Positions 49,477 to 50,668 are shown, counted from the stretch's first letter. The stretch: 64,000 nucleotides of DNA from a virus (IMGVR_UViG_3300033475_000009:26550-90549); one strand, 5' to 3'. Numbers and translations: made by a program. Notes: generated from the sequence alone by a model not told the origin.

Positions 49477-49733
49477 GTATAGAAAATATAGAGAGTAGAC
49501 TAATTCTAAGACTAAATCAAAGACCAGTTCTCTTAGCAAAGTCAAAAACTAAATCAAAGTTATCAATAATACTTTTACATATTATTGAGTTTATTTTAGT
49601 TTAAGAGAACTGCGATAAATATTAAAATATATCCTTCTGTTTAAAACACAGATGCTCTACCATTGAGCTTAATACCCCAAAGTGGAGTACTCTAGGAATC
49701 GAACCTAGTTTCTTTGTAATTAATTTTCTATAC
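49477..49733 (-). ncRNA. Candidate structured ncRNA (~257 nt) of unknown family
   Basis: Closed by an 11-bp helix (49723-49733 with 49477-49487). Contains an internal 11-bp helix (49602-49612/49525-49535), an 8-bp hairpin (49563-49588), a direct repeat CUUUGAUUUAGU x2 and a tRNA-like domain. Confidence 0.7.
49636..49708 (-). ncRNA. Circularly permuted tRNA-Lys(UUU)-like domain
   Basis: Order on the - strand: T arm CUAGG-UUCGAUU-CCUAG, acceptor 3' strand AGUACUC, short linker, acceptor 5' strand GGGUAUU, D arm GCUC-AAUGGUA-GAGC, anticodon arm UCUGU-GUUUUAA-ACAGA. Confidence 0.8.
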
Positions 49734-49798
49734 TTTCTATACTAAATATATAGTATTCCTCTTATGAGTTCAGTCTATATAACCTCTAATGCTTTTAA

Positions 49799-50668
49799 TT
49801 ATTTTCTACTATATTCAGTTACAAAATCCATAGTTTTCTGAAGACTATTAGGAATAATAATCTTTAGCTCAGATAACTCTTTAGCTTTTTCAAGCTTCTT
49901 ATTATGAATCTCTAAACGTATAGTATGATTTTCAGTATTTAATTTATCTACTTCTTCCTGATAAGCTTTTCTAGTTTCAGAGTTAATATTATTAACTTCT
50001 CTAATCTTATCAGATAATAGATTTTTTATTTTAGCTTTATAATAATTTACCTTACTTTCAGCTTCTCTATATTCCTTTTGTAAGTTAAAGTATATCTTAT
50101 AAAGATCTTCTTCAAATACTAATTGTGTTAGATAAATAACATAATCTTTATTTTCTGGATGAATCTGTATAGGAGGAGTATTCTTTAAATCTTTAAACCA
50201 TTTATCAAATACACCATTAGGATGGACCTTCTTACCTAAATGAGCTGCTTTAGCTTCACAAGCTAGAAATTCAGATAATTCACTTACAGATAATTCTTTT
50301 TTAATATCTTCTTCTGTAGGTGTTGGAAGAAGTGCTGGTACAGCGGGTAATACTTTAAATATAAAACCAAAAGTATCATATTCAGTTTGTTCTAGTAATC
50401 TATTCTTTTCTTTAATAGCTTCTCTAAGCCATGCGGAAAGAGCATATAGATTACCTTCCTCCATACATTTAGTCTCTAAATTATCTACCTTATATTCTTT
50501 ATTAAAAGTCTTTTCCTGACCATTAAAAATAAGCTTAGAACTAAATAAAGACATTCTACTAATTTCATTAGCTATTTTCTCACATAATTCTTTAATAATA
50601 TTAGCTGTATAATTAGCTTCTGCTAGAGTAAGTCCTTGCTTATCTAGAAATTTTGATTCATAATTCAT
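49799..50668 (-). CDS. Coiled-coil protein directly upstream of the ncRNA
   Basis: 289 aa; GLTLAEANYTANIIKE..LSAWLREAIKEK..KAAHLGKKVHPNG..IIIPNSLQ. Confidence 0.75.
   Translation of the reverse strand: MNYESKFLDKQGLTLAEANYTANIIKELCEKIANEISRMSLFSSKLIFNGQEKTFNKEYKVDNLETKCMEEGNLYALSAWLREAIKEKNRLLEQTEYDTFGFIFKVLPAVPALLPTPTEEDIKKELSVSELSEFLACEAKAAHLGKKVHPNGVFDKWFKDLKNTPPIQIHPENKDYVIYLTQLVFEEDLYKIYFNLQKEYREAESKVNYYKAKIKNLLSDKIREVNNINSETRKAYQEEVDKLNTENHTIRLEIHNKKLEKAKELSELKIIIPNSLQKTMDFVTEYSRK

Follow-up and report, generated by a model that had tools for sequence, protein, structure and literature searches.

In Bacillus, TRAP on the trp leader and HutP on hut mRNA are oligomers of which each subunit reads one triplet of the RNA. 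The CsrB and RsmZ RNAs titrate protein by collecting CsrA dimers, and GOLLD (RF01998) and ROOL (RF03087) are noncoding RNAs (ncRNAs) of phage tRNA islands. In YrlA (RF02553), the RNA that accompanies Rsr, the orthologue of Ro60, the parts follow the order V hairpin, T, acceptor stem-loop, and D (Chen et al. 2014, PMC4201824). Here, we describe a gene for a 289-amino-acid (aa) protein and, immediately downstream, a structured RNA of ~320 nucleotides (nt), both located in a 64,000-nt stretch of viral DNA (IMGVR_UViG_3300033475_000009:26550-90549). This whole stretch is referred to as the window, and positions are counted from its first letter. The source virus record has 90,549 bp, with direct terminal repeats and a G+C content of ~26%, and the minus strand is the coding strand of the genes around the locus. 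The RNA is real, folded, and conserved downstream of homologous genes, and its linkage to the gene is strict and single-copy. We tentatively read the two as a co-transcribed module forming an RNA-protein particle, an explanation to which we give somewhat less than an even chance.

The gene and the parts of the RNA lie as follows.

49799..50668, minus strand: open reading frame (ORF) of the 289-aa protein, without an assigned function; helices and two beta-hairpins, predicted homodimer.
49469..49790, minus strand: whole structured RNA, ~320 nt, from the 5' strand to the 3' strand of P0 (minimum free energy, or MFE, fold; covariation on alignments A2 and A4).
49790-49784 paired with 49475-49469, minus strand: outer helix P0 (MFE fold).
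49747..49781, minus strand: 5' hairpin whose internal loop, ACUGA, is conserved and which contains a further small hairpin, ACUC AUAA GAGG (covariation; distant clades).
49733-49723 (GUAUAGAAAAU) paired with 49487-49477 (AUUUUCUAUAC), minus strand: closing helix P1 as 11 bp, which encloses 257 nt and begins 65 nt past the stop codon.
49727..49742 (5' strand) paired with 49477..49492 (3' strand), minus strand: alternative register of P1, in which 16 bp are possible (covariation alignment).
49612-49602 (CAGUUCUCUUA) paired with 49535-49525 (UAAGAGAACUG), minus strand: helix P2, 11 bp (7/7 close relatives and distant clades).
49588-49563, minus strand: 10-bp hairpin within P2 (MFE fold; covariation helix 11).
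49537..49560, minus strand: hexamer tract 1, ACUUUG AUUUAG UUUUUG ACUUUG, sharing its register with the first tract in 19 other lineages.
49500..49523, minus strand: hexamer tract 2, directly 3' of P2, UCUUUG AUUUAG UCUUAG AAUUAG (register and periodicity statistics).

The gene is followed by a gap of 350 to 400 nt in seven contigs whose proteins are 54-69% identical; the gaps can be aligned, and the flanking genes are unlike. When the structure derived from the window was laid on 8 relatives, 87.7% of the cells were paired; column shuffles gave 75.7%, and slid controls gave 36-51%. Changes on both sides were found at 31 of the 76 pairs, and the covariation score was 0.309 vs 0.137; none of 500 shuffles reached either value. 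At P1, 99.2% of the cells were paired, with compensatory changes at 4 pairs, and all 4 pairs of the inner stem of the 5' hairpin covary. Among the pair types listed for alignment A2, G-U and U-G wobbles were common and A-C mismatches were rare. Therefore, the RNA is read in the direction of the gene. The MFE in the window was -77.5 kcal/mol, compared with -53.0 +/- 4.4 kcal/mol in shuffles (z = -5.6).

Helix P2 was present, each time with a differing sequence, in all seven close relatives. Because the model used for the family-wide search (R2, see below) was built without base pairs, the family-wide support for P2 came from a helix search against shuffles, in which its median length was 10 bp in viral loci and 5.6 bp in shuffles; the 75 loci had 68 different P2 sequences. 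Distant homologues (25-38% identity; 80 IMG/VR loci) share the same plan, made of the GACUGA 5' hairpin, a long closing helix, and P2; there, too, P2 encloses a hairpin and the first U-rich tract, and the second tract follows directly after it. RNAalifold returned two small hairpins only on 25 prophage loci, for which the MAFFT alignment was too divergent. Within P2 of GC-richer relatives (e.g., L020:4026-4051), we also observed a conserved inner hairpin, CCCUAUGAAG...CUGAUGGAGGG, in which a UGA stretch faces a GAU stretch, so that tandem sheared G-A pairs resembling those of a kink turn or a loop E are possible. A plain hairpin replaces this GA-rich one in the AT-rich clade of the window.

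A preliminary description of the window, made from its sequence alone, had proposed a ~257-nt domain beginning 65 nt past the stop codon and closed by an 11-bp helix. The helix is as described, but the RNA is larger and starts ~9 nt past the stop codon. The second 11-bp helix of that description is P2, its 8-bp hairpin was found with 10 bp, and the structure that it proposed to look for downstream of homologous genes is both conserved and covarying. It had also noted U-rich tracts with a 12-mer repeated twice, likened to binding sites for an oligomeric protein. Both copies of the 12-mer, CUUUGAUUUAGU, are exact (49559-49548 and 49522-49511), with no other exact copy in the 64-kb window, but the repeated unit is a hexamer, nUyUUG, arranged in arrays.

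The periodicity of the arrays was counted in 53 dereplicated downstream regions, referred to as lineages. Distances from UUG to UUG of 6, 12, and 18 nt were observed 114, 70, and 40 times, respectively, with ~11 expected in each case (z = 30, 18, and 9). According to a register scan that held U fixed at position 4, 81% of the units carry G at position 6, and 64% carry U at position 5. Tract 2 consists of 4-5 units in 63 of the 76 loci, and the arrays stay in register across loci of 25% to 55% G+C, the hexamers of the window being an AT-rich version. A triplet, UUG, thus recurs at a fixed short spacing of 6 nt in single-stranded RNA, as at the sites of TRAP and HutP, and this analysis supports the interpretation of the tracts as periodic sites of the kind read by oligomeric RNA-binding proteins. 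The part of the earlier proposal concerning repeated sites stands in the form of a 6-nt period, while binding to them is discussed below as a prediction. No consistent complementary (CAA) arrays that might be antisense targets were found in the flanking DNA.

The linkage of gene and RNA was examined with R2, a sequence model of the core. R2 matched the RNA behind 45 of the 53 viral homologues and, in bacterial genome assemblies that had no part in building the model, behind 74 of the 80 homologues. Except for two weak extras (E = 0.014 and 0.087), all matches were on the strand of the gene, ~100-600 nt past its stop codon. Of 24 whole phage genomes (90-306 kb), 23 had a single match, at the gene, and the 24th had one weak extra. 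The reverse approach, a motif-first search of IMG/VR with AGGTTCTTG(NNNTTG)x3, gave 20 listed matches with the gene ~200 nt upstream; five further matches were truncated loci of known gene-bearing contigs, and the remaining ones all fell within long reading frames.

The bacterial carrier records, which include two complete chromosomes, were nearly all titled Bacteroidales (Muribaculaceae, Prevotella, Bacteroides, and Porphyromonadaceae). Carrier phages have genomes of 90-300 kb, and some come from records labelled faecal or gut. Among GenBank phages, a DNA search gave no match, and a protein search found PQ006092 and MT836666 only, where the gene is hypothetical or the record unannotated. A scan of JGI metagenomes with a single protein returned one short contig. 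The public sequencing runs listed for the window were two DNA runs labelled soil metagenome, with no RNA run among them.

The RNA starts 9 nt past the stop codon, with no room for a separate promoter between the gene and the RNA, and in the prophage clade a GC-rich hairpin and a U run come after the RNA. Therefore, the gene and the RNA form one transcript. A sigma-70 promoter scan was not above shuffles, the sigma-70 consensus being uninformative for Bacteroidota. The proximity to the stop codon and the terminator-like hairpins would also be expected if the RNA were only a 3' untranslated region acting in cis, as a stabiliser, processing site, terminator, or autoregulatory site, with no function in trans. 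The genes downstream vary, which fits this explanation as well, and the RNA is therefore not a leader of the next gene. We nevertheless consider a purely cis-acting region improbable: ~320 nt with covarying helices, conserved loops, arrays, and optional tRNA-like modules exceed what known stabilisers need, and an autoregulatory site would still require the protein-RNA binding proposed for the particle.

When compared with Rfam 15 at the gathering scores, the core (P1, P2, and the arrays) was assigned to no family. The window matched tRNA only, and the RNA regions of 20 related loci gave tRNA-type matches only. Relaxed Rfam scans in three clades returned only noise for the core, and full-text literature searches found no description of the RNA. 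As judged by these searches, the core is an uncatalogued RNA family, and the gene-RNA pair is probably a new RNA-protein particle. Two outcomes had been named in advance as speaking against the preliminary description, namely, homologous genes without a conserved downstream structure and an Rfam assignment to an unrelated element; since the RNA is conserved downstream of the homologues and absent from Rfam, neither was encountered.

The 289-aa protein has 63 close homologues and belongs to a family of 1158 clusters at 50% identity, nearly all of 280-335 residues. Searches of Pfam, PHROG, and PADLOC gave no family match, the sole PADLOC match being a sub-threshold ZorA in 1 of 23 members, and neither TRAP nor HutP was named by a Pfam family at E up to 1. 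The AlphaFold2 (AF2) model, with a predicted local distance difference test score (pLDDT) of 86.5, consists of long helices and two beta-hairpins. Foldseek found nothing in the PDB at E up to 0.001, and a PDB sequence-profile search gave only noise. The best hits of a wide VIA-align search (Z up to 7.4) were generic helical proteins, BFVD returned a single uncharacterised member of the family, and the ESM Atlas returned unnamed clusters and a weak DUF3102 row (TM 0.31). An internal duplication was considered and rejected (N half against C half, hhalign probability of 0.1%). A link to DUF6847 (PF20935) or to phage T5 found no support either: the genome of the window gave no match to DUF6847, and T5 gave none to DUF6847 or to the present family.

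The protein was predicted to form a homodimer, with an ipSAE of 0.44, the best of three controls having 0.00; at least 96% of contacts were common to the three runs, and the pLDDT was 85. In the calibration of this tool, which is approximate for the alignment used here, 20 of 30 true homo-pairs and 1 of 23 single chains attained the mark. The predicted interface takes in the invariant W80 and P273, and invariant basic residues are kept at K26, R82, K86, K146, H149, R201, K211, and K269.

Periodicity, single-stranded display beside conserved helices, strict co-inheritance, and a predicted oligomer all fit the reading of the pair as a particle. In such a particle, the RNA would fold into a closed scaffold made of P0, P1, the 5' hairpin, and P2, and would display two single-stranded nUyUUG rulers, one of 2-4 units within P2 and another of 4-5 units directly after it. 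Dimers of the helical protein would bind along these rulers, one UUG per site, in a way that may be likened to TRAP and HutP reading spaced triplets and, for the collection of dimers, to CsrA on CsrB. In some lineages, including that of the window, the scaffold would also carry a tRNA-like module (here permuted and YrlA-like), probably as a handle for host tRNA enzymes such as RNase P, the CCA-adding enzyme, or modification or repair enzymes. The adjacent protein had already been proposed as the natural partner in the preliminary description, and its strict co-inheritance with the RNA and predicted dimer agree with this; that it binds the hexamers, and how the particle acts, is what we infer.

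Several findings weigh against this reading. In the MFE fold of the window, some of tract 1 and the leading hexamer of tract 2 are base-paired, although this pairing appears not to be conserved. With a pI of 5.2-7.8, the protein is slightly acidic, and neither Pfam nor structure searches revealed a recognisable RNA-binding domain or fold. Furthermore, the UUG motif is kept across proteins of ~25% identity, which a conserved host binder would fit equally well.

The tRNA-like module of the window lies between the 5' strands of P1 and P2 and contains the following parts.

49692..49708, minus strand: T-arm, CUAGG UUCGAUU CCUAG (fold; the stem covaries, UA to CG).
49671..49691, minus strand: closed acceptor-like hairpin, GGGG.../...CUCC-A, with a G3:U70-like pair and an A73-like residue (fold; relatives).
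49654..49668, minus strand: D-arm, GCUC AAUGGUA GAGC (nearly invariant in 8 relatives).
49636..49652, minus strand: anticodon-like hairpin with the loop GUUUUAA (MFE fold).

This order of T-arm, closed acceptor-like hairpin, D-arm, and anticodon-like hairpin corresponds to a circular permutation broken at the variable region. The T-arm was found downstream of 23 of the 53 dereplicated homologues and was absent in 30. Therefore, the tRNA-like module is optional, and the core is independent of it, as the preliminary description had held. Depending on the lineage, the module is permuted, in normal order 3' of the scaffold, or doubled.

All four arms are thus present in permuted order, and the acceptor of the window's subclade, with its GGGG.../...CUCC-A, G3:U70, and A73, looks by its sequence like one of alanine or tmRNA (transfer-messenger RNA) identity; L081 and L089 encode ACCA and GCCA, respectively, at the site of the acceptor hairpin. 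One could therefore regard the module as a permuted tRNA gene that functions as such, or as a tmRNA-like molecule in two pieces, with the rest of the RNA as its precursor. We rate this extremely improbable. ARAGORN called no tRNA or tmRNA at the module, Rfam tmRNA families gave no match, and a reading frame for a tag, ending in a conserved stop, was not found. Position 8 is an A. The anticodon-like loop of close relatives is AUGCUAA, with GCU where the window has UUU, and G3:U70 and A73 are confined to the window's subclade, the sister subclade II having neither the anticodon-like hairpin nor G3:U70. In addition, the module is missing from most lineages. A decoding tRNA was ruled out on the missing ARAGORN call, the A at position 8, the variable anticodon loop, and the lack of an anticodon arm in subclade II. 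The canonical tRNA model (RF00005) had to skip the T arm to reach 36.6 bits, and the module has neither the normal order nor a free acceptor.

A tRNA-like unit of another kind was observed in L020, L022, L029, L078, and their relatives, at the 3' end of the RNA, ~255-330 nt past the stop codon of the gene. It has a 6-nt anticodon loop, UGUURG, an encoded ACCA end, and a covarying anticodon stem, and ARAGORN calls it tRNA-??? with a 2-nt anticodon.

YrlA was the best Rfam match to the permuted module in three clades (24.6 bits in the window, 31.4 in L085, and 36.3 in L076), all below the gathering score of 69 bits. The YrlA-type order of T-arm, acceptor-like stem-loop, and D-arm, enclosed by a stem, is present, and in subclade II there is also a V hairpin, with a closing stem that aligns with that of YrlA. 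No gene for a TROVE protein (Rsr) was matched in this genome, nor over the cut-off in 24 related phage genomes. In one of the phage records (that of L067), we observed a 547-aa ORF with a sub-threshold TROVE match (G018:C1:79483-79716; 19.1 bits, E = 4e-5), ~40 kb from the RNA, which from its sequence could encode a divergent Ro-like protein. Genes for RtcB directly adjoin the module in three unrelated lineages (L248:2862-3854, L076:4750-5673, and L217:426-1283), recalling the rsr-yrlBA-rtcBA operon (PMC4201824). RtcB was adjacent in 3 of ~170 loci; it is encoded by 4 of the 24 related phage genomes and adjacent in one.

These observations bear on the possibility that the RNA has a host factor as its target in trans and that the adjacent gene is merely co-expressed. 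The RNA could be a decoy or sponge for a Bacteroidales protein reading U-rich or UUG sequences, such as an RNA recognition motif (RRM) protein, ribosomal protein S1, or a ribonuclease; alternatively, it could mimic a Y RNA through its tRNA-like module and engage host Rsr or RNA-repair enzymes. Because the UUG motif stays constant where the partner proteins diverge widely, we treat a host factor as a serious rival, if an unlikely one. The YrlA matches and the RtcB neighbours agree with it, as does the presence of a TROVE protein in Bacteroides thetaiotaomicron, which served as a control row. However, the tRNA-like module is missing in 30 of the 53 lineages, the YrlA scores all fall below the gathering score, a TROVE gene was not found over the cut-off in the 24 phage genomes, RtcB adjacency is limited to the three loci, and a pure host decoy needs no strict single-copy linkage to one gene.

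Returning to the RNA-protein particle, a more specific version of it can be proposed, which we regard as quite unlikely in its full form. It would be a new class of phage ribonucleoprotein in which a dimeric helical protein reads a nUyUUG ruler and a swappable tRNA- or Y-RNA-like module recruits RNase P, the CCA-adding enzyme, and RtcB. When gut Bacteroidales are infected, the particle would serve to protect tRNAs, to repair them, or to disarm host defences directed against tRNAs.

In the window, the pair sits right after a polymerase gene, as the preliminary description had reported, but this position is not conserved.

50697-52550, minus strand: family A DNA polymerase, PolA (gene calls and profile matches of the region).

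A MazG-like gene lies further downstream of the 289-aa gene. The flanking genes vary among relatives while the gene and the RNA stay joined; in some relatives, the pair is near DnaG-, DnaB-, and helicase-like genes, and in others the called flanking genes are different or have no replication-type Pfam match. Initiator genes often stand beside their own iterons. The proximity to PolA and to the replication-type genes of relatives would accordingly suit repeats that act as DNA, in a replication origin whose iterons are bound by the adjacent protein as initiator. This is very improbable. The covariation, with its frequent G-U and U-G wobbles and few A-C mismatches, shows that the structure is specific to the sense strand; T and D arms of tRNA type are present; the 6-bp period is mismatched to the helical repeat of DNA; and the replication-type neighbours are not shared by the other relatives.

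Additional elements were observed around the locus in the window and its relatives. At 49335-49433 (minus strand) of the window, a very hydrophobic peptide, MLFIMVILPFSIASIGVCAIII..., is encoded by a 32-codon ORF that starts ~35 nt past the end of the RNA; this ORF is below the 40-aa cut-off of the ORF listing. A 199-aa ORF with a weak match to RVT_1 (reverse transcriptase) lies ~1 kb upstream of the gene in a relative with a 62% identical protein (L081:1385-1984 and L082:75-674). Two phage contigs (L051:1-172 and L011:612-674) carry ribozymes a few kb upstream of their homologue of the gene, namely, hammerheads (RAGATH-1 and type III) and one Pistol. Directly upstream of a homologous protein gene, a ~90-kb IMG/VR phage contig carries a full-length tmRNA gene (L078:2575-2959, plus strand; Rfam, 75.4 bits), and T-loop motifs at the equivalent place in many sister contigs suggest that this arrangement is common. 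Beside two copies of the module in bacterial genomes, a WYL-WCX regulator and a type I restriction specificity subunit were found (L230:359-1369 and L213:2-1222, respectively, both on the minus strand), neighbours that could indicate defence-island or prophage-border contexts.

With 1158 clusters at 50% identity in its protein family, the module is abundant. Very few phage RNAs are understood in these Bacteroidales hosts, which are not known to have Hfq or ProQ. Cultured carriers exist (Muribaculaceae MF13079, CP061009; Prevotella sp. 885), so that genetics is possible. A strictly linked pair with an exact 6-nt ruler could reveal a new mode of RNA reading by proteins.

Compared with described systems, the locus departs from type III toxin-antitoxin modules (ToxIN-like) in having 6-nt units downstream of the gene, where those have ~36-nt repeats upstream of an endoribonuclease toxin. 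With GOLLD and ROOL it shares a large, ornate phage RNA near or fused to tRNA-like elements, but this RNA is smaller, has a dedicated adjacent protein gene, and has no Rfam match to either. As in CsrB and RsmZ, a structured RNA carries many copies of a short motif and could collect several dimers; in contrast to them, the motif is a linear 6-nt UUG unit and not GGA in hairpin loops, the RNA is linked to the gene of the protein, and the protein is unrelated to CsrA.

The likeness to YrlA-Rsr lies in an ncRNA directly beside one protein gene and in a closing stem around a tRNA-like domain with the order (V hairpin) T-arm, closed acceptor-like hairpin, D-arm. Unlike in that system, the neighbouring protein is not a TROVE protein; the RNA has ~320 nt, whereas Y RNAs have 80-130 nt; and Y RNAs have no counterpart of the universal P2 and hexamer arrays, the tRNA-like module being optional here. 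These optional modules and the occasional RtcB neighbour tie in with open questions on bacterial Y RNAs and phage tRNA mimics. From TRAP and HutP, the locus differs in that no similarity of sequence or fold was found for the protein, and in that the arrays stand on a large folded scaffold in the 3' region, without a conserved regulated gene downstream, rather than in a 5' attenuator. What it has in common with them is a single-stranded triplet repeated at a fixed short spacing, UUG here and GAG/UAG or UAG there.

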